Source: Phoronis australis (lineage: Eukaryota; Animalia; Phoronida). From it: a DNA stretch of 64,000 bases. The notes beneath the pieces were generated by a model. The model made no database searches and was not told where the DNA came from. It saw only the letters and a program-made list of their open reading frames with translations. The translations under genes were made by a program, and so were the position numbers. The DNA is taken from assembly GCA_002633005.1 (NCBI GenBank), contig NMRA01000012.1, positions 310,001 to 374,000 on the forward strand, in the 5' to 3' direction. Numbering within the stretch: position 1 is the stretch's first letter; the number at the start of each line of letters is the position of its first letter. Positions 26,959-52,052 of the stretch are shown here, piece after piece.

Positions 26959-27987
26959 ATGACAACGATTAGGCGATGGCTGTACTTCAAGCCATGTGGC
27001 AGGTTACGCCGCCTGTCACTGCCTCAGATGATGTGTGGCCTCTTTCTTTTCTGTTTTGTATCAACACTGCTCTTTGCGTACTATGCGTCCATGAAACGCT
27101 TCAGCGAGTATGTCCGCGATGTTCCCAAGCCGAACTTCAAGTGTCATTCTCGAGCATTCTCCAGTTCAGACTCGCCACTGAAGCCTAATGATCACGTGTC
27201 TAGTGCCCGGCTTCGAATTGATGCGAAGGTGTTGATCATTGTTGAGACACAATACTCACCACTTGGTAAGAACATTGGCACTCTTTTGGACTCTGTGAGA
27301 ATTAATTACAAGGCTGAGATTGCCTCTCATCCTGCCTTACCCTATTTAACGCGTATGGACAAGGGCAAGTATGGGATTATTATCTTCGAAAATTTCAATT
27401 CGTATCTCAAAATGGATAAATGGAACCGCGAACTGTTGGATAAATACTGCAGGGAGTACACTGTTGGCGTAATTGGCTTCATGCCAAGAACAGAACTCAA
27501 CCATTACGAACATCCTATCGGAGGAGGGTTCCCGCTGAAAATTAACACAAATCTTGGCATGAGAGATTTCGAGATCAATGCCACCTCCGAAATACTGCGT
27601 GTGACACGTGCTGGCGAAACATACGTAGGCAATTTACCAGGGGACGAGTGGACAACATTTGTACCTGAACACCCAACATATCAGACTTTGGCTTACTCGA
27701 AAACTCAGAGTTCGGCCGAGCTCGTCAATTACACGCTAGATATGTTCGAGATGGATGAGCCCCATCATTCAGTCATTGTGCAAGACCTTGGTAAACTGGA
27801 TGGTGTACAGCGAGTGCTGTTCGGCAGTGGGCTTCAATTCTGGCTGAACAAAATGCTGTTTTTGGACTCAATTAGTTTTCTTTCTCATGGAAAACTGAGC
27901 ATACCCCTAGAGAGATTCATACTCATCGACATTGATGATATTTTTGTGGGCATGAAAGGTATTCGTATGAAGCCGGCTGATGTCAAG
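26959..27987 (+). CDS. NDST: NDST coding exon 1 (MTTIRRW...MKPADVK), TM anchor and start of deacetylase domain
   Basis: 353-aa ORF; acceptor TTTTGTTTATAG ending 26910; donor AAG|GTATGT at 27988; DIDD motif. Confidence 0.96.
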
Positions 27988-30900
27988 GTATGTGTTAAGT
28001 TGTGTCATGTAAACTGTTGACAAATTTGACAGTTAGCCCTAAGCACAAGTTGGTGACCTCATTTGATTATCACATTCAACTGTTTCTGGACACTGTGCTC
28101 TGTTCTTCATCATAGTTCAAATGAATGCATTTCCTTGAAATCCATCTGAATGGCAAATCTCCTTTAGTATTCCCCGTTCCTACTGTAGAATCGTATTTTA
28201 AAACCTCTGCTATGCCACACTGTCTTGGTAAGTAGTACAAACAGCCACCGACATCAACCTCTATGCCTGTGTTATTTTGCCACTTCGACCTACCACTGTT
28301 AGGGTCTTATCACACTAGGTTTGTTTTGAAAAGTTCATGTTTTGAGCCCATTGCAACAATTTTTATGAAAAGAATGCTGACGATAAACCACTTTGCTCTT
28401 CGTCAGTTTGTGTTTTGCCCAGTCAGTTCTACCTTGGTTTCTTTCCCATTTTTGAGATTGTACTGAGACCTGCCATGGTGTGACAGTGCCCCAAGTAACA
28501 CAATTGAAATGTGGAAGACCTATTTAAATCTGTTTTGACCTGAGGCTGGAAGAAGCTTGTTACGGTAATCAAGATATGCTGTACAAAATCTAATTAAGGA
28601 GTCATTTACTCAATTATTTTAAAACCCAAATCCATTTCACTTGGGAATCATTATGGTCATGAGAACTTTATTATCCATCGCTCAATGTCTACAAGTAATT
28701 GGATAAAAGAAGATAAATTAGGCGATACCCGACGAGCCATAATATCTTCGACGCCTTTTTGTATTAATGTTGGATTATTGCTAGGTACGTATATTACAAA
28801 GCATAAATAAATGTACCGAATAAGGGGGTTTTAATTGAATTGTATAGGTATTATTGGAAATGGATTGTTACAAAGCCTTTTAAAATCTGAGCATTTTGAA
28901 CTCTGACTTAAAGGATTTATGCATCATGTTGTGTATCAAGTGTTGCAGGTTCATTATTTTAAACATGGCCCTCATTTCCACTAACAGTATGATGAGGAAG
29001 GAGGCTTCATCAACGAATTTATCAGTTACTTCCTGTGAAAATAAATTTAAGTTTTTGCATTTCATAGTTATCACCCCTATCATCAAATGACTTCTCACAC
29101 AATTGTCTCGCACTCCTAAAATGCACGCCTTGCCAAAATCACCTTGTCACCTTATTTCCTCATTCACTGACTTTGTTTGGAGCAGAGGCTACAACATATG
29201 TGTAACTCCTGTGCCATATAGCACTGAACAAATGTCCATCTTGCTATAACTTTGCAGGCAATGTTACACACTCAGGATACGTTGAGGAAGGACATCAGTG
29301 GCTTCCGCTTCAACCTTGGATTTTCTGGCAAGTTCTTTCATAAAGGCACACCTGAAGAAAATAATGGGGACGACATGCTCCTTGGTGAGTTGTTCTAGCT
29401 CTTCAAGCTCATGTAAAGGCATTATGGTTTACATGTAACTTAGCGACATAAAACCCTCTGTGACCAGATGTGTCTCTGAGATTTTTTCACTGTAGAGCAA
29501 AAGGGAACTTGATTGTCTAGACAACTTCCGGGTTAGTGACCACAGATACCAAATGTCTGAGGAAATTTTCCCGCGGAATTACCTATGAGGCATTCTGTAA
29601 CATGACTGCAAGTCCATATTCAAAGTATTTGACGCTGTTCAATTAATTCCTGAAGACTTAAAACCAAGTGTTATTTTTCAGCTTTTTGCATTGAATTCCT
29701 TGTTTAACATTTGTAAACGTTTTTGTTGATGTCCTCTCATATCACATTTAACTTCTTTTTGTTAACATAACTGTTATGAAAGTTATTGTAAACTGTTGTT
29801 ATTGTTAATATTTGAATTTCTTTACACTAATACCTTATTCATCTGTGTTATAGCACATATTGATTTAACGCTAACAAGTTTATCCTTAGTTTACAGTAAA
29901 ATCTCATCAATTTCGAAAGCAATATGGCTGACTTGTGAAACTGAATTGTATCACATATGTAGCACTAAGTTAAAGGCTTTTCCACTTTCAGCTTTTGTAT
30001 CACAGACACCATCTGACAGTTTTGAAAAATTGTGGGCATCCACAATAATGTTAAAAACCCTTGAGAAAGGAAAAATGACATTTTTAGCTATTACTTTTGT
30101 CTGAAATTGATGAGATTTTGCAGTAAAAAGTTGAGACGTTTAGTGTCTTAAAGCACTTATTCTTTACCAGTTCACATTTTACTGCTCAAAATCCATAAAA
30201 CTGGCGTGCTTGCAACTCATGAGCAAGCGATTGTTGTGTGAACAGTTGTTACTGCAAGGGTCTCGGATTTTGAGAACCAGTTTGCTACTTGTTATTCAAT
30301 GGAGAAAATTGGTTCACAAAATGCAGGACCTCTGAAAGTGGCTATTACCGTACTTTGCCAATTTTTGTTTGACTAGTGCATGTAAAATGAATTTCACAAA
30401 TTTTATACTGTACCTCCTGGTCGATAAGCTGCATTCCAGTTCAGGTGAACACTCATCGCGACTCAACTTTTAAGTGCCCAATTTCGGCTCAACACACATT
30501 GCCTGAATTTTTCAGTTTTGTGATTTAAAATTTTCACCAGCATTAACCTGGACGAGTAGGTTAGATCAAAGACTAATTTGCAGCCAGTCCTGACTAAATG
30601 TATTTGTGTGTTTTATTCAATTCAGTGTGTCTGTGGATTCTTGATTAAAGTCTTGTTGATTGTTTTGTTACAGTCGTTTATCATGTATTCTGGTGTGCAA
30701 TGTCTCCTCGTCTCAAGACCTGTCTTTCTTTACACTAACCATTTCAGATCAATTCTCCAATTTAATCAAAGAGATGTGATTACTGTTAAATAATTTATAA
30801 ACAACTTCTAATGCATGCGCCAAAGTGGTTATATTTTCCTGGTGTGAATGCTTTACCATCATGCCATGTTCATGCAGTGTTTGCTTTTAAATGTTTTATG

Positions 30901-33900
30901 AGTGTGGTGGTCTGAAACGCTGAGAGAAAGCTTAATGCGTTTGCTGGACCCTCGATGCCTCCATTTGGGGCTAAATATTGTCCTCGTTTCCCTTTGAAAA
31001 ATTTAGAAATCTTACAAATACCCCTTGTTAGGCCAAAAAATTCCCCTCGAGTGATTAAAAAATTCCCCTTGAGTTTAGAATAACTTGTAATTCACACAAG
31101 CGACGATTTGAAAGAGTACAAAATGTTTGTTTTGAGCAAAGCTGATGAAGGGTGGTACCATGCGGGAGGTGTTGTGGGCGGTTGGGGCGTACTATTGATG
31201 GTGATCAGGGGGATAATTTTCTCCTCACCCGAAAAAAATCCCCCTCCGAGGCCACAGGCACTTTTCCTTTAGTTGAGCGAGGGCCCTGGTTAGTCAGCAT
31301 TTATTTAATTTGCAAGTTAGTCTAAGGTAATTGTCAACCTTTGATTTATTTTTCATAAATTAAGAGTAGAATTCATGAATAATCATGAATTATATCTATT
31401 ATTTTTTCAAACAATGGTGATGTCTGGCCTCAAAAATGAAGACTTGCACCGACATTTACTGAGGGACTTTGAGAGCTGATATATCTGTAAATTAATTATC
31501 AGAAAGACGATTTACTTTGTAATGACAGTGAGAAAGGTTTTTTATATAGTTTGAAAACAAATTAAACACAAAGCTGCACACACTTGGGATTTTTAGAAAT
31601 TAATGTTGAAAGCAGACAAATGAGTGGCAGAGGATTCAGAAAGCATATTTACTTTCAAGTTTTGACTGTGGACAGTTAGAAGTAATTTGATAAAATGCGA
31701 AAGTATTTCAGGAAGGTTGCCAATTACCTTAGGATTGCTCTTGCTCTTTACATGTGAAAGGGATTCTGTATTCCTCAGTCAGACCATATGTATGTGTTTC
31801 AGTCATAACAAGTACATCATCTTCAGGAAGCTTCCTGGAAACAATTTACTGTTAATGAATTTCGAAAACTTATTGACCTAGTTTTGATTAATATTATCGA
31901 AAAAACAACTTTTCTGCTATGATAAGTGTAAGAGTGAATGGTTTGGGCCTAGGGTATGGCATGTTTGGAGAAAACGTACAAGTTTCTGCTTGAATCGGAT
32001 GGCCTGATTGATAGATTTTTGAGTCTCAGTCGAGTTTGATTTCGGAAATCAGTCTGTACTAGATTGCATTCACTAAAAAGTGTAAAGATTGCTAAGAGAA
32101 CTTCCTGATGATGACAAAAAATCTGAATCTGATGTATTTATTTTTGAATTCCTGTTTCTGTTATCCGTTTTTGGAGATCGCTTTTCATTTCTGTTTGGGG
32201 TGGCTCATGCTACAAGTTGAGAGCCATGGTAACACTGTCTTGGCAATTGTCCAGAATGAAAAAGTTCGTAGAAAGCATGTAGAATTTGGTTTTTGTCTTT
32301 ATACCAATCTGGGTCATATGACCGTGTATTTTTATTAAAACTGAGGGTAGAAGAAGAAGAAAGGTACATCCACATGTAAATAATGGTGTCAAGAGCAGAT
32401 ACAAATTTTGATCGATATAAATGTTTAAGATGTTACAGTTTTTGAAATTATCATTTCGTTTGCTTTACATGCAACTTGTGTGCTTTTTCTTAAAAATTAA
32501 AAAGTCACATTCTTTGACAGGGAATGCGATTACCCATTTTAGAGATATGATGTTTGGAAGTTTGCCAAATTCGGCCATTTTTCAAGGACCCTACATAACC
32601 TTATCTGCAAACGTAAACGGCATGCTCAGTAACTTTTTCCCAGGTGTCTGTGCTCACCATGGCTGTCTATGATTGCTTTAGCCCAACTGAGTGTATTCTC
32701 TCATTTTTTGATCATGTTAGATGTGGTTCTCCCATCTTTGACCCTCAGTGTCACTGTTTCCTGTATTGGCCTCGTTATGTTTTATGCCCAGACTGACATG
32801 GCTGTACATACTGGGCTTACTCTACCACTGTTGGATTGGAAATAATAAAATTTGACAACATAGGTTTGTGTGGTGTTGTGATGGCCACTACACACAAACA
32901 CACCAAATGAAGTCCTGAAAATGAAGTGTTATGCTGGGATGTGTCGATATTCTCTGCCTTTGAAGTTTTGAATTTTCTGGATGTGAGGTGGTTAAATTTA
33001 GGAATTTAGAATAACCGACTAATGAGGATTTAGGAATATTATTTGAACAGTGTTTTCACTGGATGACCACTTCACATCTGTCAAAGCAAAGTTGGTAAGG
33101 TCAAATTTGAAAACCTATTCATTGGCAATGAAATAAATCAAGGGGTAGAAACAACACAGCTGATGCATTCATGAACATTATAGTTCTTCATTTATGAACA
33201 CTGTTTACGGCCATAGTAAATTCTGTTCAGCGACTGACAAACGAGCTTAGTAACTGCCCAACACTGTACTCAAGCATGGTGTTTTTGTACTGGGTGCGCA
33301 TGGATATCACAATTTGTGGGTCAGGTACTAGCACCATATTTAACTGTTGTTCAACCATGTTTGTGAGTCTGGGAATGAGTTTATGGATTGTTGTTTATCG
33401 GGACCTTGAGCCATGTTTGTAAATGAGGAAGTATGTTCATTAGTGCGACAGCTGTTTCATTTCCACACCCTGTAATGTAGATTCATTTTTAACTTGATAA
33501 TGAATTAAAGCAGTGTTGTTTGTTGAACATGAATTGGCCATTTGTATCAAGATTTTATCAAGTTCTCATTTGTGCAGGAAAATTGACTAAACTTAAAGGG
33601 CATGTGAATGTTGGTCACATAATCGAATAAATCAGTTGTATGAATTGAACATGAAAAGGGAATACACTCACTGGCTCTGGCTCGTATCTAGCGCATGCTT
33701 TATTGCTTCTGTTTCTTACAGAGAACAAACACAAGTTCTGGTGGTTCTGTCACATGTGGCGACACACGCAGCCCCACCTGGTGACCAATCTTACAGCTTT
33801 CTTCATTGAGATGCGGAACAATTATGAGTTTGCTAAGGTAATTCCACGCAGCCGCTGGGTTGATGTTGATGTTGATGTTGATGTTGATGCACCGAGCATG

Positions 33901-36900
33901 CTTGATGATGGCGTACTGGGCTTGCTTGATGGTGTCAAAAGTCCAATTCTCTTGCATTATTTCTACCTTTTCTTTAAACATTTCCTTTGTTTGTAGTGGT
34001 TGGTCATGGTGGCTGAACTATGAACGGACTGGGTTTGTCTTGTGAAAAGTTTTGTGTAGGAAACATTTTATGTTTTGTGCTTTTACGCTTGGTGAAGAAA
34101 ATTTTGCAGCTCTCCATGTGGTGTTGCTGTGGGCAAAGCACGTGTGCATGACGGGTAAAACTTTTCTCTGTGAAAGATTACTTAAGATTTTCTGAGAAGT
34201 CATAGTTCAGTCACCATTGTTTTGCATGCTATCTTATCTGAAACTCTCTATCCTTCACCTTTGCTCTGAAACAGGTAAGTTTTTACGCACTACCCTATGT
34301 CACTCTGACTGGCATGTTGTAGCATCTTGACATATGATGACCTTAATTTCGATTCATTGGCCAATTCATCCTGTAATTCTAAATTTAGTTGCAAGAGAAA
34401 GTATTTTTGTTTGGATTAGCATCAGAACTGGGATATTAATTAGAAATTGTCAGATGCTAAGGCAGGCACGAGGGGTGTCATTTGGTGTGTCTTCTAAGGT
34501 AGAGGTTAGCTTTCAGGTTGCTGAGGAAACCTCTCCCCGTCCAGGACTTACAGGGATCAGCGAAACATGACCCACTTTTTGTGGTGTTGTCGTCTCATGT
34601 TTTGTCATTTTCTTCGTAGAGTACAAACACCACTTCTGGTGGTTTGGTCACACCTGGACGCACGCCCAGGCGCATACATTCCTTGGCAACGAGTCATGGC
34701 TTTATAATGAAATGTTAACCAATAAAAACTTTTCTGAGGTAAGACATGGGCTAGTCATCAGCTGGTGGGAGGGTGTTCAGGTACCATATGGTTCAAAATG
34801 TCCTATTTGTTACTTAACAAAGTTAAATTTGTTATCTCCTGAAGTTTTCTTCCTTGTTTCTTTTTATCCCCGGGTTGTGGTAATGGCAATCGTCATTCTG
34901 CCTGTGTACTATGTCCACAGAGAATTGTACTCTTCTGTGCAGAGGGTTTTTCTACATTTTTAAGCATAGCTCAACCTAAACTCTCTTTTGCAATTTGAAG
35001 ACTCCTACAGATCATCTGAAGCCGAAGTGCTGGTGTGTCGGCATTGGCAGAGATTGTTGTCACGTGGGTTGTGACATAATTTCTTTGGTTGATGATGTAA
35101 AACATTGTTCCAAACAGATGATAGATTATATCTAAGTCCTTGCAACACTGTCGCCCTACCTATGGAGATAACAATGTCTCAGCAGTGTTTAGTTACCTTC
35201 GCGGATCAGACCATGATTTTTATGTAAAATGTGGTGATCCTTTATACTGAGGAGGATTGGTTTTCCCGTGGTGTTAGAGAGGCGATCCACGAGAGAATTG
35301 AGTTCCCTAGCCTCAACAGACACGGAGGACTTAGATATGATCTGTCAACTGTTTGGAACAATGTATTATATCACCAACCAAAGAAATTGTGTCATAACCC
35401 ACGTGTCGACAATCTCCGCCAATGCCGACATGCCAGCACACCAGCTTTAGGTGATCTGTGGAAGTCTCCGAGATGGGGACGCTACGTTATCATTTATATA
35501 AAGTAAGTCCAGAAATTGATTTGTTTTGCATTATGCGATAACTGGATGAGTAAGATATATTCAATTATTTCAAAATTTATGCTTTTGGAATGAAACAGTG
35601 CATATTGTTGGCATTTTGCAAAGTGACCGTGTTTTCTGTAAATCTTGATTTTCTCCCACCCATGTATGGAAATACTCTTCCACGACTGACTTCTACTTCT
35701 CAAATAAAAACCTAATAAGTAAGCTTGCAGAGTACCATATGCATATTGTTGGCACTTTGACTTGACACAGTATTTTCCTAAATTTTAGCCTGTTGTTGAT
35801 TTTCACACATCCATGCAGGAATGCACATGACCCTCAGTGAGGGACATTGTTGTCTGTGACTGCCTTGTTTGTTTTGATTACGCAATGGCCTCATATGTAA
35901 TCCAATTGGCATGAAATGTGCAGGTATTATGTGTCATGTCAACAGCTCAAAGCCTATCATTTTTGTGGAATTCCACCTTGAATTGATGTTGTGACAACCT
36001 ATTATTGACTTTGCAGAATCGAACTACACAGTCTGCAACTTTTGTAAGAAGGGTATACCCGTTTTTTATCGTTTTCAATTTATTTGAGATTTACCAGTAG
36101 CTGCTCTTTTGTTGTCTGACAAATTTTTCGCTCCATTTACCATGTGTTGTATAAGTCTATGTTTCTTAGTCATTTTTGTCATCGTTCATCATCAGTTTTC
36201 ATCATTGGGGTAATCGTCATTGTCTTTTTATCATTTTGTCATTCAGTTTTGCCAAGAGTCACTCTCTGTAGCACTTTTGTTTTCTTTTTAATTTACTGGC
36301 CAAAAGTGGATGCGCTTCTAATTTAGTTTCAATTATGACTTTATTGTATCAGAAAATGCAGTTTTTTTCTATGATATTGTTCAACAGATGTCTGTCATGG
36401 GTGATTGACAGTTACATTTGCTCATTTGGTTGTGATGTCTGTAAGCTACTAAAGCACTAAAAATACCACCTCGCAATAATTGATTTTAACTTTGTGAAAA
36501 CTGGCTTATTCGTGTTGGAAACTTCCTCCCGTGTGATTTTTAAAATCATGAGAGTGAAACCTTTGTCCAATCTGAGTCATACATAATTCCCAGGATACCA
36601 GTGCACGGATATGTTGGATATTACTATTGTCAGATATTAGCAACATGCATGGGTGGGTTTCAATTGGTTGTCGCTTCTCAGACTGAAGACCTGTCTCTTC
36701 AATTGCTTTGGCATTCACGCTTCAGTTGTTGAGAGCGACTTGCAAACTTTCCGCTATTTCCGAGTCTGGTGAAACTAATCTTTTACGATGGTGCGACTAA
36801 ATAAAATTACAGTAATTTTCCACTTATTTCGCACAAACGTAATAGCCACAATGGTCGTTTCTTGATTTTTTAAAGGCTGAGTTACAGATGATGAAAAATT

Positions 36901-39900: not shown

Positions 39901-42900
39901 TCCACCTGTTTACTGTGAAGTTAAGTGGCGCAGTGGCGCAGTTAACTTCGATTCAGGACCGAAACTCCCCAAAACATCGATGCGTTGACGTTGGTATAAA
40001 AGGTCCTATAGACTCGTGGTAATTGCAAGAGCTAGTGTGATCACATTCTTCATTTGTATAATGCATGGCACAAAGACTTGCATCATCTTGGTTTTATACG
40101 TTTTTTCGTCTATAGAACGCTGACCAATTTCCAAAATTGAGCATTTTCACTTTTCAAAGGCTTGTTACATTGTTGAGCACACCCATAGTTTCTCAAAAGA
40201 TTTTCTTGAAAATACCAAAGAGTTTTATTTTTACCTACTTATTGTTAATGAAGGCTATAATTTCACCCTGCCAGCCTATTGTGTTATCTTGAATTGTTTG
40301 TGTATGAGCCAGCAACTTGAGTCGCAGGTAATGCATACATGTGCTATTTTTAAATTCGGTATTTTTGATAGATTGGCCAAAACTCTGAAACGTGTTCTCA
40401 AGTCGCTGATTGCTTTGATGTTGTTGTTGATTATACAAATAATATCTTATCGTGGCTAGGAGCATTATGCTAACGGTTTTGTGAGAGTAAAAAGCCTAAT
40501 TCAGTTTTTGTCTTAGGTAGCTAAATGGCGAAATGCAGGTTTAATTTGAAAAATGTTAATTTCACGTTAAACTTTTGGTATTATAATTATAATGTTAAAT
40601 GATAGTTTCTTACATCAAGTTTCCCCAATAACATTGCACTAAACATGAGAATAGACTTTAACATAGATGTAGACATTTTTACATAATTTGCAGAAAATGA
40701 CAAGTTTGCATTAGTAAGCTCTCATCTCAGGTGATGCAACTGAACTTATTTCACAATCACAACATACTGGTAGTAACATAATAGACATTTAGTGAAATGC
40801 AGCAGGCCAATCAGGATCTTGAAATTGGCACTTTGGAGCTAGACAACTTTTGCATTCTTTTGTTACACTTTTTGAGTTTAAAATGCTAAAAAATTATGTT
40901 GCTAACTTTCAAGTTTTTGTTATTTCGGTGCAAACACGAGGGATATCAAAATGATGCGTTGAAGAAAAAAATTAATGATATGAGTTTTGTGTAAAAGCCA
41001 AAATGGTAAAATTGGAGGTACTGAAAATCCAGGAAATCGATAAACTGGACTATTATTATAGCAGTTGAAACATTAAACGGACACCGTGCTATGAAATTTT
41101 AGTGTCCAATCTTTTCTAAAAGATTCCAATTATTGATTTAGTTAGAGGATGTAAATTTCACATTTTTGCCAGAGGTACCTCCGTTTTAAGTGGCTGTAAC
41201 AGAAAAACGAATGTGGTGACCCTCGCTTTCTTTTGCAGATTTGATAGCAGGTAAAGTCCCTATTTTTTAAATTCAACAATAAACCAAACCTGTGTAGAAT
41301 GTTTAAAATTATTTTGTTTCCTCCTCTACACTTATAGGTACAAATAATAAAGTTGTCACTTGAAGTTCTTGGTATTCATTTGCTAAATAATCCTTGCAAA
41401 GAGCTACTAGTATGTTTGTGGCAAATACTTCTGTCATTATGTCACTGTTCCCTTGTCATACAATTTACATTATTGTGGTGTGTTTACACCCAATGACTAC
41501 AAGTTTGACTTTCAGTGTACTCTATGTCTCTGTTCATCCGGTCTTGGGCCTGTACCACTTCTTTTAGTATGTAATGAAATGACAGAAGATGCTGTTGTTT
41601 TAAAGTTGGTGTTGGAACTGTGGACTTGGTCATTCATTCTGATTCAAGTGATACACTACAAGACAAGCCTAATCAGACAAAATACCATTTCCCCTTCTTG
41701 ACAATTCTGTTGACAGGAAAAATGACTGGTAATAACTATTATGGCGAGGAGGCAATGTTGCCTTGTGGGATTAATATCCACTTCCTTTACTCATGGTTGT
41801 GGGTTCGAGTCCCGCTGGGGCACATTGCGAGATCCTAGAGTCAGGTCTCTAACTCCTCGGCTTGGTTTTAAGTTTATATTAATCGAGCATAAAAATGGTT
41901 CCATGTGATCAGTGCAATGGGCCCACATGAGCGACCTGCGCACGTCTGCTACAACATGTACCTGTCCAACCTCCATCAGTTTTCGTTATTATGGCAGGGA
42001 AATTTTAATTACAAAATGGTTAGCTACCTTTCTAACTTTCCTGTTCATTCGTTACTATCCCCGGTCGTGAGGAAAGACCAGCCATCATGACTGGGAATTC
42101 TGGGTCATTTTGTCTGAATAGTGTTGGCTTGCGCTGTCAGTGTTGATGATTAGAGATGTCTCCAATGAAACATGTGACAACCAGCATACCAATGAAACTG
42201 GATCATAGGACTTGTCAATGTCGGTTGGTGTCAAAACTTGAAATACAACCCGGAGTTTTTCTCTAGTTGAATAAAAACGAGGTTAATTTCCATATTTTGG
42301 ATCTTAACACAAAAGTCACATTTAGACCCTAATGAGGAGAAGGGCAGACATAGAGAATGTGTTTTACAGATAAACATGTACATGTCAATTTGTTTCCGTA
42401 AACCTAGCTTCCTTGTTTTGTACTAGCCCTTCCTCTGATGAATCTTATCANACAAATATTAAAGTTGTCACTTGAAGTTCTTGGTATTCATTTGCTAAAT
42501 AATCCTTGCAAAGAGCTACTAGTATGTTTGTGGCAAATACTTCTGTCATTATGTCACTGTTCCCTTGTCATACGACTTACATTATTGTGGTGTGTTTACA
42601 CCCAATGACTACAAATTTGACTTTCAGTGTACTCTATGTCTCTTTTCATCCGGTCTTGGGCCTGTACCACTTCTTTTAGTATGTAATGAAATGACAAAAG
42701 ATGCTGTTGTTTTAAAGTTGGTGTTGATACTGTGGACTTGGCCATTCATTCTGATTCAAGTGATTCACTACAAGACAAGCCTAATCAGACAAAATACCAT
42801 TTCACCTTCTTGACAACTAATTCTGTTGACAGGAAAAATGACTGGTAATAACTATTATGGCGAGGAGGCAATGTTGCCTTGTGGGATTAATATCCACTTC

Positions 42901-45900
42901 CTTTACTCATGGTTGTGGGTTCGAGTCCCGCTGGTGCACATTGCGAGATCCTAGAGTCAGGCTTGGTTTTAAGTTTATATTAATCAAGCATAAAAATGGT
43001 GCCAGGTGATCAGTGCAATGGGCCCACATGAGCGACCTGCGCACGTCTGCTACAACATGTACCTGTCCAACCTCCATCAGTTTTCTTTATTATGGCAGGG
43101 AAATTTTAATTACAAAATGGTTAGCTACCTTTCTAACTTTCCTGTTCATTCGTTACTATCCCCGGTCATGACCAGCCATCATGACTGGGAATTCTGGGTC
43201 ATTTTGTCTGAATAGTGTTGGCTTGCACTGCCAGTGTTGATGATTAGAGATGTCTCCAATGTAACATGTGACAACCAGCATACCAATGAAGCTGGATCAT
43301 AGGACTTGTCAATGTCGGTTATTGTCAAAACTTGAAATACAACCTGGAGTTTTTCTCTAGTTGAATAAAAACAAGGTTAATTTCCATATTTTGGATCTTT
43401 AACACAAAAGTCACATTTAGACCCTAATGGGGAGAAGGGCAGACGTAGAGAATGTGTTTTACAGATAAACATGTACATGTCAATTTGTTTCCGTAAACCT
43501 AGCTTCCTTGTTTTGTACTAGCCCTCTGATGAATCTTATCATAATCTCACTCTGTCTGTTGCAGTTTCAAGTACATACAACACTTCCCCATTCATCCAAT
43601 CATAATGTCCTGCTGTTTTGACTATATTTCCCTAAGATCTCATGCTTTCCTTATCTTCTAGCTATCCCCATTACAGTCAGTAACATCTTGGTATTTCTGT
43701 TACAGTTTCATGGTATTCCCACTGACAACTACTATGCAGTGGCGCCTCACCACTCGGGCGTGTATCCAGTCTTCGAGCCTCTATACGATGCGTGGAAGAA
43801 GATCTGGGGAATACAGGTGACGAGTACAGAGGAGTACCCCCACCTTAGGCCAGCCATAGGTCGGAGGGGCTTTATACATCAGGGTATCAAGGTAGGCAGA
43901 TGAAATTTGCATGGCCCTTATGATGTCTTCTTTTATTGAACTAGATGCATTTACTTGAAGAAAGGTCTTATATCACTTGAAATTGGAGAAGTTTGGAAGT
44001 GGCCCCTGTTATACACATAATGTGTTCTATACAGGCCACTGACTGCAGCTGTCTTTTGCGTTGACTGTTTTTTCAGAATGACGGATGTAGCGATACTATA
44101 GAATCATTATACACACGAGCATCGCATCTTGCGCACGAACCACCTATGAATCATGCATACGAACCCAAAAATCACGCATACGAACAAAAATCATCTACAC
44201 GAACACAAAATCATTCACACACGCAATGAATCACAAGTACGAATACTTTGTCGTTTTGTGGATCGTGCGTATGATTAGGATGCTCGTCTGTATGATTGTG
44301 TTCGTTTGTGTGATTTTTGTTGTTCGTATGCATAATTTTTGGGTTCGAATGTATGATTCATGAGTTCATAGGTGGTTCGTGAGTAAGATGCGATGCTCGT
44401 GCGTATAATTATATGGTTCCCCTGAGATTGTGTAGCTTGAATTCGTAGTTTGTAAGTAGTCCTTCATGTATGCAGAATTTATTATGCGAAGAATCGTGAT
44501 ATCTATAATGTGGACTGTATCTTGTAATGTCATGATCTTTTACCTGCAGGTGCTACCGCGTCAGACATGTGGTCTGTTCACGCACACAATATTCATAGAT
44601 AAGTACCCTGGAGGACGTATACGACTAGAGAACAGTATTAGAGGAGGCGAGCTGTTTCAAACCTTCTTGTTCAACCCAGTGAGTTAATGGTTACCTTTTG
44701 AATTTTTACTTTTCATTTGGCATTACTCTACCTGGTGTGAAACAGTGCAGAGCTTTTAATGGCTGCGTTTGAGTCACTCTCCGAGGCCAACCATGACATC
44801 TGATTGGTTTCCAGTGGCCTCTGCAACTTGGGCACAGGAACTTACCAGATGTTTTCGCCTTTTGACTTGGGGGACACAGTGTACCTTAGGGGAGTAAATT
44901 AGGTGCAGCAATTTTGTAAATTCATACAAAATTCTACAATATTCAGTACAAACTCACCATACCTGAATGTTAAAGTTTTCAACTTCTTGCTAATTGTTTG
45001 ATGTTAATGTTTGTACGTATATAGTCTGTATGCATTTTAATGGAGATAGGCAGACTTGAAAACTTCTTCACAAAGACCCTGTTGATCGATAACAGGGGTC
45101 TTGTGAGTTTTAGCTGTGGTGTTTTGTGCAGTGGGCCCAACCACAAGTCCTGCGCACATCTGATGCACTGCCAAAGAATCAGATCACCTGCACTCTTTTT
45201 GTACGCGTGTTATCATTTGACAGCTAGGAAAAATGAGAAATTTCATTTCAGGTTTGTTCTGTTTATTAAAATCCAAGTATATTTTCTTATACTTTTGATC
45301 GAACTTTTGTGCGCTCACAAAAAAAAATTGTAGCGTAAGTCAGTATCCCTCCCATCTGTTTCCTTCGGATGTTGTGTTGTGTTGGTGACACACTTGTGTT
45401 TTTACTATCCTTTGTTCAGATCAATATCTTCATGACCCACTTGTCAAACTACGGCAATGATCGCCTGGCGCTCTACACATTTGAAACGGTTGTCAAGTTT
45501 GTGCGTTGCTGGACCAATCTACAACTGAGGACTGTTCGCCCACTCCAGCTCGCTCGCATGTATTTTGACAATTACCCTGATGAGGTGGATCCCGTGTGGT
45601 CGGTGAGTGACACCTAGTGGTCATGTGTGAAGGCAGTGGAGTATAGTGGTGTGCATATCTGTCTTATTCATAAAGTTGCAAGTCCCCTTAAGATCTAAAC
45701 TTTAGAGCGCAATGCTAGAACCCTGAGTCTTTGTGCTTGATTTAAATTGTGCCGATACTGTTAGGTGGCCATTATAATTGTTATGGACTTTACCTGAATT
45801 ATTTTGTAGCGCCTGTCTAGTAGAATTGAGAGAATTTAGCTACTTCGAAACTCTTTGTCCAACTAGTTTGTATTCATGGAAGTTTAGAGGATGTTATTAA

Positions 45901-48900
45901 AATCAGCAGCTGTGCACAACAGCCCAGTTTCAACAAAATTCATTTGCTGAGTATTTTAGAAAGTTGTTGAGAAAATTAAGCCGAGTTCTCTTTTGCAGGC
46001 GCCTTGTGTTGACTCCAGGCACAGAAACATTTGGCCCATTAATAAAACTTGTGATCGACTTCCCCATTTCCTGGTTATAGGGCCCCAGAAAACAGGTCAG
46101 TTGCCCTAAGATTGTCATCCAGTATTGTAGGCTGTGATCAGACTCATTGACTCCTCAGAAAAATGTAGTTTTGATCTGGTGGATTTTGTTGCGGCTCAGC
46201 AACACAAATCATTTGTTGAAGTTAACGGCAGTGATATTCTTGTATGCAGTGGTAGATATGCCATTTCAGATTTTCCTTTGATGTCTCTAAGTCACTGACC
46301 ATAATTATAAACATTTTCAAAAGTGTACTTGGTGGAGAAGCAAAGGTTTAAATTTACAATTCCTTAAAATGTCTGTGTACGTTATGGTCAGAGAGGGGGA
46401 AAGTCAATGTTTCGGGAAATTCTCTTTATGGTGTGAAGAATGTGCCATTTTCTATGGTTTTAGAAATGACTTCCCATTTAAATAAAACGGCAATATTTAT
46501 TTTGTTGTTTTTTCTCTATTTTTTGTAATATGCTAATCTTCAACTCTGTCATTGAAAGTTGAGAGTTTTACTTGATACAATATTTCATCCCCTCTTCTGA
46601 TTATTCCAGGATCCACAGCTTTGTACACATTCCTAACACAGCATCCAGCAATAAGGAGCAACTTCCCCAGTCCTGTTACTTTTGAAGAGGTTCAGTTCTT
46701 TGGTGGCCGTAATTACTACAAAGGCATTGACTGGTCAGTATCTACATCTATATTGAAGAGTCTATTTCACGTCTTGCCAAAAGTCAGAAATCTGACTACC
46801 AATAGCCAAAATTTCATTTTTTTGTCTTTTGTGTTGTTCGAATTGTCTTTTGTCTTGAGCAGAAATGGATTTCTGCCTTTTGACTTTGAGTTGCAGACAG
46901 ATTATCTGACTGCTTTTCACAGACTTATTACTAGCCACAAGACCAAAGCCAGTAGACTGTGAGAAACAAGCCGCTGTCATAGAAGTGTATGAGTATTGTT
47001 TGGTGAAAGGGCTTTGCTGCATTGGTGTGGCAGCTGCAGTGGTTGGTAGAAGTTATGTTTGCAGCATAAGTTGTGTTGTGTTGTTAAAGGCATGTAGTGT
47101 GAGTATTTGAGTTGTAAAACCAATCTGAAGCTGAATATTTGAATTGGAGTCTCAGCCGATTAGAAGGCAAGTGTACATATTTATTATTTATTACATTGGC
47201 ATGAATGCATCACAGAATGCAATACAAAAACAATAAGTCTTATGACCTCTTGGGCTTTTAAATCTCTGTTACAAATTAAGAAGTTTCATTTGTACTTAAC
47301 AGCTATTATAACTTATGGTTGAAATAGTATAGAGGTCATGCTCTAGGCCAATTGACCTATTGCAAGCTCCGCCGCCTTGCGAAAAGTCACGGGACACCCA
47401 ACAAACAAATAATAAGTTTTACCCAACGTGTTATATGTCGGGTAAAATGGTGGCTTGGAAACGAAGGTGTGTCAAGAATGCTGCGCTCTGATTGGTCAGT
47501 TGAGCCGTCACTCAAAATCCTAGTGATTGGTCAATTATTACCTAAGAAATCAAAGGCTACCATCGGTCAATTCAATGGCTGACCTTGAAATTTCATTCAC
47601 AATGAATTTAGCATAATTAAAGTAGGTGTCATGTTCATGCTAAATTACGATGTCACTAGATTGGATGATCATAGATAGAGCAGTAGGTACTAAAAAGACT
47701 GGCCGACACTATTGACATGTGTTAAAGATGAGACTTAAATACAGTATCCTTCCCTAGTGATCCAAAATAAAGGGAAGTGTACAGGAAAGTTAGAAAGATT
47801 CAGTAAATTTTGAGCTGTGATTAAAGATGTGATGCTGAATAATAAAGTTTCTGAGTGTGCATATTTGTATTCAGTTCTGTTTCTACCTGTTGGCCAAATC
47901 TTGCACATGACAATTGCTGGCAATTGGTCTACTTAACATAAGTTTAGCATTTTATGATAATTTTTCTTTGAATTAAAACTCAGCATAGGGTTCTTCGAGT
48001 CCTGTTCCTGGGGTCTAGTCTCTGTACTCGAAATTCAATGAAAATTTGCATGTCGCGCCTTTACCGTAGTCAACTTACAAATTTGTGCTTGAATCATACA
48101 CTGTGATTGGTTAAATTTCGAGTCTGAATCTGACTCCAGTCTGAGTTCCGAGATTAGGTCTTGTGCTTTGTTTAAACTGGTAAGTTTGTGTAATTTATTG
48201 TCGGTTTTTCAGAAATTTGAAATACTTGTGAAGGCAATCAAGGGTACCGTCATCCTTATCAAATTGAGAATAAACATTTTGGGGTGTCTTTTTTTACCCG
48301 TATCATGCACAAATACCACCATTTTGTCTCTGTGGAAAAGTTTCTGGCATCTTGTTTACAAAATTGTGAGTGCAACATAATGATCACATCTTGCTACCAA
48401 TAGGTACATGGATTTCTTTCCGGATCAACCTGCCAATGGCTCATACTATCTATTTGAGAAGAGCGCCACATATTTTGACAAAGACTTTGTTCCTAAGAGG
48501 ATCCACACGCTGTTGCCCAAGGCCAAGTTAATCTGTATATTGCTGAGCCCTGCTAGGAGGGCGTACTCCTGGTACCAGGTATGTGTCATCTGCATCGATT
48601 TCAGAATGCTCGCGCTTTTGCCAGAAGGCATTTTCAGTGTTTAGTATGTTTTTGTCCATCTTCACATCTTTTATTTTGTATGTTATTATTTGTTAGGGAT
48701 GACCACAGAAATAACTGTTCCACTTTCTGGTGCTATACCCTGGTTTTATTTTTCTCACATTCATGTATTACCATCTTATTTGTCTTATTTTGTGTTATCA
48801 TATCTCATCTTTACTCATGTCTCTCCTTCAGTTATATGTCTTGTGTATATAGCCCAATGATCAATCAATAAATCGGTCAATCAATCCATCACCATCATTT

Positions 48901-50995
48901 TTATATATGTGAGCTGAGCATGATCAATCAATAAATCAGTCAATCAATCCATCGCCATCATTTTTATATATGTGAGCTGAGCATGTATATTTGTTCTTTT
49001 TGAACTAAAATTAAGCTCTTTCTAGTTTTCACAAACATTTCAATCATTCATGAAAATTTCAAGCTATGCTGTGTTTTTGATTAAGTTCTGAAATTCATCC
49101 ATTGGAGTTTATGGATATGAATTTCCCACAATTCGCTACTTTCGTCTTGCACAGTTCGGTGTGGCCCGTAACCAGGTTTATTTTCCACTGCAGCACATAA
49201 GAGCCCACCGAGACAAAACAGCTTTAAACTACTCATTCTACGAGGTGATCTCAGCCGACCAGTCCGCTCCCAAGCCAGTGCGTGACTTGCGCAGTCGCTG
49301 CCTCAACCCTGGACTGTATGCTCATCACTTGGAGAAGTGGCTGCTGTACTTCTCAAGCAAACAAGTTTGTAAATTCAGCCATACTTTGTTTTGTGATACA
49401 ACTGATAACTGGTGAATTATACTAAATAGAGACTGCTTGAAAACTGTTTTCATTAAAATAGTTAATATCAATAGCGAGTTACGTTTTGGTTTACTATGCC
49501 TTAACTGATAATGCAGCTTTTTTGGAAAGCAATGTCGTCTGCTCCACGTCCACAAACATGATTCAGAAGTGCACTGTTGTTGTTATTGCTTTAAAAGACG
49601 AATGGAATTTTTGACTGTGAGGTTCCATTGTGTCATATTCCGTAGAATTTCTTCTTCGTGGGACATTAGGCTACTCTGACTTAAGACCGTGAAGTGTTTC
49701 TTGTTCTTCTGCCTGTGTTTATGCAAGAGTCTTAAGATCTAATCCTCGAGTCCTATGTAGAATCAATTATGGTAAATTGTACAATTCCATTTGATGTTTA
49801 ATGTTGTCAGTTTCCTGTGAGATTGGGTTTATGAGCCAATCCTTACTTATTCCAGATTCTCATCTTGGATGGTGGAATGTTAAAGACGGAGCCAATCAAA
49901 GTGATGGACACAGTGCAGCAGTTCTTACATGTAGAACCCTACATGAACTACTCTAGTCACTTGAGGTACTTAAGTGCAGATGCACTCGCCATTTCTGTGA
50001 TACTTAAATGACGTGAAAAATAGTATCCCTTTTTGAGGCACTTTTTTGTGGGAATAAATTTATTTGAATGCTCACATATCAGAGCACCACACCACAAAAG
50101 TATGTATGCCTATGGGTGTATTTTTGGCAACTGTATGTTGTTTTGGAAATCTGATGGGTTGTTGTAAAATGCATATGTATTATGTTTTGAGTGTAAAACT
50201 GTATATGACATTATATATGACTGTCATCTAATGAGGTATTGAGTGACTTTGAAGGTAACTAGCCGTATTAGCAAACCAGTATAAAGGAGTTTTAATAACG
50301 CACTGAGCTTGTTGAATGTGAAATTAGTACACACAGATAAAATTCTTTCTAGTGAGATACAATTATATTAAAAAGGATGCGTTTGTTTGTTTCACAAAAA
50401 CTGCACCATAGAATGTTTCATACAGTTTCCGAAAATATACTCCCCTTTCCAAAAAATACACCCAGCCGCGTATTCAGTTTCATTTGACGTTTTGACGGGT
50501 CGTTTTCCAAATACTTGTCCATAAGCCTATTTTCGGAAATTTCTAGTAGAAGGTTGTGTATGCATACATGAAGCCAATACAACGAAAGAAGGTTGAAATC
50601 ATACTGTAAACATATTAGTATATTTTTGGCAGCCAAATCTTTGAAGAGAGTTGAAATTGAAGCCATTCCTCAACAGCTTTGTTCTTCATAGCTCCAAAAA
50701 CAACAGAGTTGTGAAATTGCTTTATGACTGATGTCTTAGGATCATGTTGGGTCTCATTGTTGTGTTCTGTTTTTGCAGATATGATGCCAAGAAAGGTTTC
50801 TTCTGCCAAATTAGAGATGACAATCACACAAAATGCCTCGGTAAAAGTAAGGGTAGGCTCTATCCGCAAATGGATGATACTTCGAGGCGATTTCTTTCTC
50901 AGTTTTATAAACTTTCGAATGTGGCTCTGTATAAGCTACTGAACAGAATCGGCCAACAGATTCCCGGTTGGTTAGAGGATGAACTCGCCACATGA
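26959..50995 (+). CDS. NDST: Bifunctional heparan sulfate N-deacetylase/N-sulfotransferase (NDST / sulfateless-like), spliced: join(26959..27987,29258..29384,[33722..33837 OR 34620..34738],43706..43891,44550..44678,45420..45602,45999..46095,46610..46733,48404..48578,49194..49364,49856..49965,50779..50995)
   Basis: Exons join through GT-AG introns into one open frame of 2664 nt (887 aa) or 2667 nt (888 aa). N-terminal type II TM anchor; deacetylase motifs ILIDIDDIF, WWFxHxWx[25 protein letters not shown]; sulfotransferase motifs [40 protein letters not shown]. Confidence 0.97.
29258..29384 (+). CDS. NDST: NDST coding exon 2 ([42 protein letters not shown])
   Basis: TTTGCAG acceptor, G|GTGAGT donor, phase 0 in and phase 1 out; [10 protein letters not shown] motif. 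Confidence 0.95.
33722..33837 (+). CDS. NDST: NDST alternative exon 3a ((E)[38 protein letters not shown])
   Basis: TTCTGTTTCTTACAG acceptor, AAG|GTAATT donor, 116 nt, phase 1 to 0; WWFxHMWxHxQPH motif. Confidence 0.93.
33860..33889 (+). repeat. (TTGATG)5 microsatellite 22 nt downstream of exon 3a
   Basis: Directly visible. Confidence 0.9.
34240..34280 (+). promoter_or_regulatory. Recursive-splice-site-like element (polypyrimidine tract-ACAG|GTAAGT)
   Basis: CTCTCTATCCTTCACCTTTGCTCTGAAACAG immediately followed by consensus donor GTAAGT; no AG between 34211 and 34272. Confidence 0.5.
34620..34738 (+). CDS. NDST: NDST alternative exon 3b ((E)[39 protein letters not shown])
   Basis: TTTTCTTCGTAG acceptor, GAG|GTAAGA donor, 119 nt, phase 1 to 0, no stop; paralogous to exon 3a. 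Not in the ORF track. Confidence 0.9.
34999..35467 (+). mobile_element. Penelope-like element 3' fragment (GIY-YIG C-terminus) with inverted pseudo-LTR arrangement
   Basis: [45 protein letters not shown] matches the Penelope endonuclease tail; 34999-35140 is an inverted copy of 35326-35467. Confidence 0.75.
37165..37227. repeat. 22-bp tandem repeat, about 3 copies (AAACAATCATGTTTACACATGT)
   Basis: Directly visible. Confidence 0.85.
37680..38215 (-). mobile_element. Possible RTE-clade LINE 5' region relic
   Basis: GC-richer block; CCTTTCGACCTGCCCAACATAGATGACCCTACCAGGAG...CTCCC resembles, from memory, the antisense of RTE 5' UTRs. No protein motif to confirm. Confidence 0.3.
41340..43541. repeat. 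About 1.1-kb direct duplication (41340-42450 / 42452-43541) joined at a single N
   Basis: Near-identical copies with SNPs and small indels; probably haplotypes. Confidence 0.9.
43706..43891 (+). CDS. NDST: NDST coding exon 4 ([21 protein letters not shown]...FIHQGIK)
   Basis: TTACAG acceptor, AAG|GTAGGC donor, 186 nt. Confidence 0.96.
44106..44409. mobile_element. Foldback MITE with long TIRs and AATCA...ACGAAC subrepeats, in an NDST intron
   Basis: ATTATACACACGAGCATCGCATCTTGCGCACGAACCACCTATGAA pairs with TTCATAGGTGGTTCGTGAGTAAGATGCGATGCTCGTGCGTATAAT. Confidence 0.8.
44550..44678 (+). CDS. NDST: NDST coding exon 5 ([13 protein letters not shown]...FLFNP)
   Basis: CCTGCAG acceptor, GTGAGT donor, 129 nt. 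Confidence 0.96.
45420..45602 (+). CDS. NDST: NDST coding exon 6 ([21 protein letters not shown]...DPVWS)
   Basis: TTTGTTCAG acceptor, GTGAGT donor, 183 nt. Confidence 0.96.
45999..46095 (+). CDS. NDST: NDST coding exon 7 ([32 protein letters not shown])
   Basis: TTTTGCAG acceptor, CAG|GTCAGT donor, 97 nt; start of the 5'-PAPS-binding loop. Confidence 0.95.
46610..46733 (+). CDS. NDST: NDST coding exon 8 ((G)STALYTFL...[17 protein letters not shown])
   Basis: TTCCAG acceptor, GTCAGT donor, 124 nt. Confidence 0.95.
47350..47572. mobile_element. Possible small TIR element
   Basis: Ends AATTGACCTAT and ATCGGTCAATT; CpG-richer than flanks. Confidence 0.35.
48404..48578 (+). CDS. NDST: NDST coding exon 9 (YMDFFP...FEKSATYF...RAYSWYQ)
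   Basis: AATAG acceptor, CAG|GTATGT donor, 175 nt. Confidence 0.95.
48858..48985. repeat. About 62-bp tandem duplication
   Basis: ATGATCAATCAATAAATC...GTGAGCTGAGC occurs twice. Confidence 0.85.
49194..49364 (+). CDS. NDST: NDST coding exon 10 (HIRAH...[23 protein letters not shown])
   Basis: CTGCAG acceptor, CAA|GTTTGT donor, 171 nt. Confidence 0.93.
49856..49965 (+). CDS. NDST: NDST coding exon 11 ([36 protein letters not shown])
   Basis: TTCCAG acceptor, AG|GTACTT donor, 110 nt. Confidence 0.94.
50779..50995 (+). CDS. NDST: NDST terminal coding exon ([10 protein letters not shown]...[11 protein letters not shown]...WLEDELAT*)
   Basis: TTTTGCAG acceptor; TGA stop ending 50995. Confidence 0.96.
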
Positions 50996-51689: not shown

Positions 51690-52052
51690 TAATAACTTCA
51701 ACAAGTCTCCCACCCAACAATAATAACTTAACAAGTCTATCCCACCCAACAATAATAATAACTTCAACAAGTCTACCCCACCCAACAATAATAACTTAAC
51801 AAGTCTATCCCACCCAACAATAATAACTTCAACAAGTCTATCCCACCCAACAATAATAACTTAACAAGTCTATCCCACCCAACAATAATAACTTCAACAA
51901 GTCTATCCCACCCAACAATAATAACTTCAACAAGTCTATCCCACCCAACAATAATAACTTCAACAAGTCTATCCCACCCAACAATAACTTCAACAAGACT
52001 ATCCCACCCAACAATAATAACTTCAACAAGACTGTCCCACCCAACAATAATC
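51690..52052. repeat. Minisatellite, about 33-bp unit (AACAAGTCTATCCCACCCAACAATAATAACTTC), about 11 copies, in the putative NDST 3' UTR
   Basis: Directly visible; unit length varies from 30 to 36 bp. Confidence 0.95.

Follow-up and report, generated by a model that had tools for sequence, protein, structure and literature searches.

An NDST gene with two tandem third exons

We analysed a 64,000-nt stretch of the Phoronis australis genome (contig NMRA01000012.1 of assembly GCA_002633005.1, positions 310,001 to 374,000 of the forward strand; hereafter the window, numbered from its first letter), in which a complete NDST gene of 12 coding exons occupies positions 26959-50995 on the + strand. Its product unites the N-terminal domain, the HSNSD deacetylase and the sulfotransferase that define an NDST on a single chain. 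All internal exon boundaries carry AG/GT and no internal stop interrupts the frame, as read for exons 7-12 from the window sequence rather than from reads. Pfam PF25119 and PF12062 matched in a scan of exons 1, 3a, 3b and 4, and the full model, with exon 3 excluded, was 52-60% identical to 29 NDSTs.

The third exon is present as two neighbouring copies, 3a and 3b, which a first-pass annotation made from the letters alone had proposed to be mutually exclusive. Its description of two intact paralogous exons held: coordinates and peptides agree, the exons measure 116 and 119 nt with AG/GT ends, and each is entered in phase 1 and left in phase 0. Also confirmed were the 17 identical residues over 40 aligned columns and the FWWF-x-H-x-W-x-H-x-Q-x-H motif with a sequon at the same column of both copies. 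The flanking introns are unlike each other, as it had also claimed, since 400-nt flanks matched no better than shuffles (P 0.37 and 0.14). The two exons aligned with a score of 47, the best of 200 shuffles reaching 23, and both peptides lay above cut-off on the same part of Pfam HSNSD-CE (3a on profile positions 69-107 with 43 bits, 3b on 70-106 with 30.7 bits). Nucleotide identity by codon position was 21/30/21 of 39, with its peak at the second position, and the same codon was used at 9 of the 13 identical residues that have a codon choice, which speaks against full saturation. A profile of 45 exon-3 peptides recovered the two copies at E 1e-20 and 4e-16 and found no third copy among 3512 six-frame window pieces (next match E 0.21).

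Translation gave an open protein of 887 residues with 3a and of 888 residues with 3b; with both copies together it ended early, after 456 residues, and with neither after 391, which bears out the frame shift predicted for double or empty messages. The copies are adjacent, homologous, equal in phase and encode the same region of the protein, as mutually exclusive tandem exons do.

Both copies are joined to exon 2 in RNA

Three raw RNA runs under the same species label (X1, X2 and X3) and a contig run (X4) were mapped onto window positions 27700-34990, about 19% of each raw run being read. Each copy of exon 3 is spliced onto the common upstream exon 2. The joint 29384>33722 (exon 2 to 3a) was covered by 12 reads, eight with five starts in X1, four with four starts in X2 and none in X3, and the joint 29384>34620 (exon 2 to 3b) by six, none in X1, two with two starts in X2 and four with two starts in X3; all were stranded and bounded by GT..AG. 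Both junctions had been named by the first-pass annotation as places to look for reads. The ratio of 3a to 3b ran 8:0, 4:2 and 0:4 over X1, X2 and X3 (P 0.00075 counted by reads). X4 gave nothing on NDST exons and is no evidence either way. At the intronic positions 31037-31288, many partly fitting reads with sharp loose ends in X1 and X2 probably come from a transcribed repeat elsewhere.

Table 1 Exons and candidate splicing elements of the NDST gene, in window positions
Feature	Position	Strand	Evidence
Exon 1: start codon, membrane anchor, N-terminal domain, DIDD motif	26959..27987	+	Pfam, alignment; RNA joint 27987>29258
Exon 2: 127 nt, common donor, phase 1	29258..29384	+	sequence, RNA joints
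Candidate pairing element over putative 3a branch region	33660..33692	+	predicted RNA duplex, lead only
Exon 3a: 116 nt, first alternative copy; H396-M-W-R-H400, sequon N408	33722..33837	+	12 junction reads from exon 2
Intron between 3a and 3b: 782 nt	33838..34619	+	
Exon 3b: 119 nt, second alternative copy; H396-T-W-T-H400, sequons N409 and N422	34620..34738	+	6 junction reads from exon 2
Candidate partner element immediately after 3b donor	34739..34778	+	predicted RNA duplex, lead only
Exon 4: 186 nt, common acceptor, phase 0, after 8967-nt intron	43706..43891	+	sequence, Pfam
Exon 5	44550..44678	+	sequence
Exon 6: general-acid His 536/537 (human H529)	45420..45602	+	sequence, alignment
Exon 7 (exons 7-12: shared sulfotransferase domain)	45999..46095	+	sequence
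Exon 8	46610..46733	+	sequence
Exon 9	48404..48578	+	sequence
Exon 10	49194..49364	+	sequence
Exon 11	49856..49965	+	sequence
Exon 12, with stop	50779..50995	+	sequence

The swapped segment surrounds the metal histidines

In human NDST1 the metal is held by D320, H389 and H393, with D319 as base and H529 as acid, all of them needed for activity, and a glycan sits at N401 (PMC10864358). These human ligands agree with the first-pass assignment of the metal triad to the H-x3-H motif and the Asp of DIDD. Exon 3 aligns to human residues ~380-417, including H389, H393 and N401, and alignment to the human enzyme places in both window isoforms the DIDD motif at 324-327 (D326 base, D327 ligand), the histidine pair at H396/H400 and the acid at H536/537. 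Because both copies retain both metal histidines and the sequon, and because the base, the third ligand and the acid sit in shared exons, the part that is swapped is the surrounding strand-loop-helix. The earlier proposal of different deacetylase pockets with a shared sulfotransferase therefore stands as far as two frame-locked alternative exons of one NDST gene are both used, but the catalytic residues themselves are unchanged.

Among nine isoform or exon pairs from the window and from the animals described below, whose copies we call first type and second type, the two sets share no residue at a single column only, just ahead of the second histidine (human S392), which reads R,G,R,R,R,Q,R,G,G in the first type and T,S,S,A,S,S,S,S,S in the second. 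The order of the copies is known for four pairs, where the leading copies carry R,G,R,R and the following ones T,S,S,A, the order of the classes agreeing in 4/4; this marker column served for labelling the other five pairs, and neither the discordance within every pair nor the agreement of order arises by construction. The first-type copy is the more basic in 8 of 9 pairs (+2 vs -2 in the window), and 3b carries an extra sequon relative to 3a. In a structure model of the chiton first-type isoform (100 sequences; predicted local distance difference test, pLDDT, 86; template modelling score 0.83 to 9F6Z), the exon forms a barrel strand, the two-histidine loop and the next helix; a first model, from nine sequences, was unusable (pLDDT 45).

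Judged from sequence, the two isoforms may differ in their grip on the anionic chain. We would tentatively suggest, without much confidence, that the more basic first copy, with Arg just ahead of the second histidine in the window gene, might hold anionic or already sulfated chains better and lay longer N-sulfated blocks, and that the second (Ser/Thr, as in human NDST1 S392) might lay shorter ones.

The exon pair in other animals

Isoforms of relatives were taken as database gene models from homolog searches and from 20 clusters. Two versions of the exon-3 segment occurred in 6 of the 20 clusters and a single one in 12 among the members listed, the remaining two being single-member clusters. 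One-version clusters comprised ticks, Daphnia, spiders and Penaeus (members listed: 15/40, 15/25, 15/17 and 15/17), scorpions (two clusters), odonates, limpets, abalones, scallops, amphioxus and one other. When 14 isoform pairs were aligned, seven differed solely inside the exon-3 segment (15-22 differences), namely those of the nemertean Lineus, the brachiopod Lingula, the chiton Liolophura and the horseshoe crabs Limulus and Tachypleus (two pairs each); six differed elsewhere, and in the annelid Owenia a single gene model carries both segments in tandem. Limulus and Tachypleus have two NDST paralogs each, every one with an isoform pair. RefSeq models in four phyla connect both versions to a common downstream part, the two isoforms being listed there already, automatically, as X1 and X2.

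At the genomic level, the exon-3 segment was found in 26 of 71 metagenome loci, with tandem copies in one (L014), where two copies of 116 and 113 nt with AG/GT ends are separated by a 626-nt intron and lie ~7.6 kb from exon 4, a short-then-long layout common to this locus and the window (782 then 8967 nt). When exon 3 was left out of the tree, the protein of the window and that of L014 fell on the spiralian side (approximate likelihood-ratio test, aLRT, 99 for the split), their placement inside it not being fixed. A single exon 3 is present in six loci whose contigs include both flanking exons; L019, L032 and L065 are insect-like, L030 and L036 Daphnia-like and L024 arachnid-like. Among the 150 matches listed in a representative search, one open reading frame (P0245) reads through two exon-3 copies 20 codons apart, and in both the residue that follows the first histidine is unusual (Q and S).

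Other candidates were set aside: in the supposed tandem pair of L018 the two matches overlap (a frameshift), and the second stretch of P0372 was too weak to count. Ten exon-like open reading frames had no named cluster members, a homolog search with exon 3b alone returned no candidate, and of 331 pattern matches in a first metagenome scan with both exons none was confirmed. Among annelid-like loci, L006, L007, L008 and L020 are intronless full-length NDST copies on long contigs, and L039 and L040 contain introns with one exon 3 after exon 2; all six have the second-type motif H-S-Y-[SA]-H, and the Capitella model is of the first type. Retrocopies, or opposite losses within annelids, are possible explanations. 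A Diaphorina citri model (P0084) has a near-identical repeat of a portion of the exon-3 segment, which looks less like an old pair than like a duplicate made in assembly.

Age and number of origins

Trees were built from sets of 14 and 18 peptides that leave out Tachypleus, whose sequences are near duplicates of Limulus. The first- and second-type (A/B) labels were assigned by similarity in five of the nine pairs and the order is known in four; the constraint of independent origins is free of these labels, and that of one origin depends on them in the five pairs. With 18 peptides (nine pairs), the approximately unbiased (AU) test rejected all-independent duplications in two runs (AU 0.002 and 0.012) and per-phylum origins (AU 0.0008), and one origin was compatible (AU 0.30-0.35). 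Without two marker columns, AU was 0.011 for all-independent and 0.006 for per-phylum origins. A spiralian origin plus a separate one in horseshoe crabs gave AU 0.25-0.28 on all columns and 0.02 without the marker columns. The free nine-pair tree set eight first-type copies against all nine second-type copies plus the Lineus first-type copy (aLRT 88), and among the four pairs of known order, pairing by position was best in 4 of 6 quartets.

Forty columns make a short alignment, and selection acting in parallel could imitate common descent. We lean, with reservations, towards a pair that arose once in an early protostome; at least one origin in spiralians plus one in horseshoe crabs appears a less probable course. 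One copy would have been lost in most arthropods, and probably in conchiferan molluscs. More speculatively, the ancestral protostome NDST might have had a two-state splice switch at its metal loop that brachiopods, nemerteans, chitons, annelids and horseshoe crabs kept for >500 million years, whereas flies, arachnids and most molluscs settled on one state, with the two states writing different N-sulfation block patterns by tissue and R/G/Q vs S/T/A as the selector; we hold this broader picture to be conceivable but rather doubtful.

How one copy might exclude the other

Because each copy is joined to exon 2 and the frame fits with one at a time, the gene likely makes two full-length NDST enzymes. 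In the mechanism we propose, 3a and 3b would each be joined to exon 4, double or empty messages would be sent to decay via early stops, and the choice between the copies may be regulated by tissue or stage; one gene would likely yield two enzymes that may pattern heparan sulfate differently. Steric exclusion, which calls for a donor and branch point <50 nt apart, is unlikely given the 782-nt intron between the copies, in which an AG precedes the 3b acceptor by 61 nt; in P0245, with its 20-codon spacer, exclusion could be steric. Nor do the splice sites mix U2 and U12 types, as the donors GTGAGT, GTAATT and GTAAGA differ from the U12 consensus.

Another route would be docking-site/selector pairing, in which intron pairings compete and are kept up by compensatory changes. 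A predicted RNA duplex between the putative 3a branch region and the stretch behind the 3b donor (Table 1) reached -34 kcal/mol, was beaten by 0 of 400 shuffles and ranked 2 of 144 such pairs in the gene. It came from a screen of nine region pairs with eight shuffles each, in which three pairs clearly or narrowly beat all shuffles and one more was marginal. No counterpart was found in L014, where 58 of 60 shuffles were as good. Since it was chosen from nine region pairs, contains many G-U pairs and has no such counterpart, we treat it as a lead only. A second predicted duplex, between exon 3a and the following intron (33742-33781 with 34118-34157), also reached -34 kcal/mol, the best of eight shuffles giving -28. 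Among human mutually exclusive exon clusters, 60% have lengths not divisible by three (PMC5740500).

Weighing the explanations

We consider it highly probable that 3a and 3b are tandem duplicates, each joined to exon 2 and fitting the frame singly, from which the gene likely makes two full-length NDSTs with shared catalytic residues and a different metal-histidine strand-loop-helix, which would likely differ in heparan grip and deacetylation. Several observations weigh against this reading and against a single origin of the pair. Exon 4 lies outside the mapped stretch, no exon 4 joint was seen and the junction reads number 18 in all. No 3a>3b joint (33837>34620) was listed in RNA, at a depth near 0 to ~1 around the 3a donor (0.13-1.15 or 0 by bin) that gives this absence little power. 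Counted by distinct starts, the sample bias in 3a and 3b use has P 0.06, and because X1-X3 differ in alleles, individual or genotype is as possible as tissue behind it. On the protein side, single-copy genes have a wide choice of residues at the marker position (N 91, S 73, R 19, K 19, G 18, A 7, Q 3, in 229 of 244 proteins), and the cleft loops named for human NDST1 (319-332, 486-512 and 528-538; PMC10864358) all lie in shared exons, outside exon 3. In the trees, the split of the free nine-pair topology has bootstrap 49 with the Lineus first-type copy on the other side, quartet consistency over seven pairs is 15/21, no better than chance (P 0.89), and independent origins are not rejected with 14 peptides (AU 0.07) or with the eight peptides of known order (AU 0.07); the similarity-based labels in five of nine pairs favour both the one-origin tree and the charge tally. 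The same tree results would fit a history in which one exon was duplicated independently several times to give mutually exclusive, expressed pairs, with the two residue classes made by parallel change or gene conversion. Human and fly orthologues commonly show tandem-exon events of this convergent sort (PMC9741552), the shared codons at 9 of 13 residues would suit repeated duplication or gene conversion, and a separate xiphosuran origin fits on all columns; the rejection of all-independent and per-phylum origins, with and without the marker columns, the identical class order in 4/4 pairs and the short-then-long introns alike in the window and L014 speak against it, and we rate it a possible but unlikely history.

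The duplicates could also yield two enzymes that are equal on heparan, the pair being retained for expression level via unproductive splicing or for stability, glycosylation, metal preference or partner binding. All catalytic residues are indeed common to both isoforms, most arthropods, scallops, limpets, abalones and amphioxus manage with one version (12/20 clusters among members listed, six genomic loci), 3b has its extra sequon, and the predicted duplex would lie across both the branch region of 3a and the donor of 3b. Yet the full motif is kept in both copies over distances that erase neutral DNA, the class difference adjoins a metal ligand in 9/9 pairs, and vertebrate paralogs are unequal in deacetylase strength (PMC9132247, PMC7570499); functional equivalence is a minority prospect that we nonetheless take seriously. 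That one copy is decaying or non-productive, as a pseudo-exon or alternative last exon leaving a single full-length enzyme, might be read from the few reads and from a mapped stretch showing upstream joints rather than exon 4 joints, but it is very improbable in view of canonical donors, intact frames, conservation peaking at the second codon position, Pfam matches above cut-off in both copies, a depth of 0 in the bin behind 3b in all runs, and the RefSeq models that join both versions downstream. An assembly duplicate, haplotype collapse or pair of paralogous genes has next to no chance: the downstream intron does hold a real 1.1-kb, 97% identical tandem duplicate and the copy search was confined to the window, but 3a and 3b are 44% identical with unrelated flanks, other genomes have an equal layout, and reads linking one and the same exon 2 to both copies already contradict it. 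Junction reads, isoform pairs in other phyla and the second genomic locus together uphold the old duplication that the first-pass annotation had preferred to an assembly duplicate.

Repeats and other elements in the window

The tandem duplication in the intron ahead of exon 4 spans 41340-43525 (1.1-kb units, 97-99% identical). Inverted-repeat pairs resembling small non-autonomous elements lie at 34999-35467 (142-nt arms), 44103-44412 and 29890-30127. The region 3' of NDST holds a 33-nt array (51690-52051, 11 copies) and a 44-nt satellite (61851-64000, 49 copies) that continues past the window edge. A THAP-domain fragment (Pfam PF05485) occurs twice on the + strand, at 3262-3540 (E 1e-6) and 4594-4890 (E 3e-4), within a duplicated stretch with a spacing of ~1.3 kb, probably transposon-derived.

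Significance and comparison with known systems

The pair of expressed, probably mutually exclusive exons at the NDST metal loop, common to several protostome phyla, is real. It is apparently undescribed so far, and probably a protostome-old case of a known splicing kind. The first-pass annotation knew of no description, and the literature searched, which excludes most subscription papers, likewise yielded no account of NDST or sulfateless with duplicated alternative exons. NDST is absent from the main text and ten text supplements of PMC5740500, a catalogue of human mutually exclusive exons, and from the main text of PMC7954323, where events touching catalytic sites are rare (nine). The NDST splice variant on record, from human NDST1, lacks exon 12 (PMC9132247). 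All later heparan sulfate modification is steered by the N-sulfated blocks that come from NDST, and control of its site and extent is still open (PMC7570499). Vertebrate paralogs differ along the whole chain, whereas in the isoform pairs, which occur in at least eight lineages, the differences are confined to 15-23 residues near the metal site; being otherwise identical, these pairs make the role of the metal-site loop directly testable, and could guide work on heparin-making enzymes. The pair would be a source of invertebrate heparan diversity that fly-centred work would miss, and, if the broader two-state picture above is true, one swapped exon would do what vertebrates do with four genes.

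The three-domain human enzyme NDST1 (PDB 8CCY, 8CD0, 8CHS and 9F6Z; PMC10864358) has D320/H389/H393, D319, H529 and N401 all matched in both window isoforms, but vertebrates rely on four paralogs and the window gene on an exon pair. Its H-x3-H metal motif on a (beta/alpha)7 barrel recurs in the fungal deacetylase Agd3 (CE18, PDB 6NWZ) and in CE4 motif 2 (PMC7229062); Agd3 has another substrate and 14% identity, and no exon pair was considered there. In its splicing, the pair resembles tandem duplicated exon substitutions such as PKM1/2 and Ca-alpha1T (PMC9741552, PMC5740500, PMC7954323), homologous neighbours that are frame-incompatible when joined, old and often tissue-biased, of which Ca-alpha1T is a protostome-wide mutually exclusive example (PMC9741552); the catalogues concerned mainly cover human, fly and a few model species. 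Alternative splicing of NDST itself is known from human NDST1B, which alters heparan sulfate sulfation (PMC9132247). NDST1B skips exon 12 in the sulfotransferase half and is inactive and dominant-negative, whereas in Phoronis a homologous deacetylase exon is substituted and both forms are predicted to be full-length.

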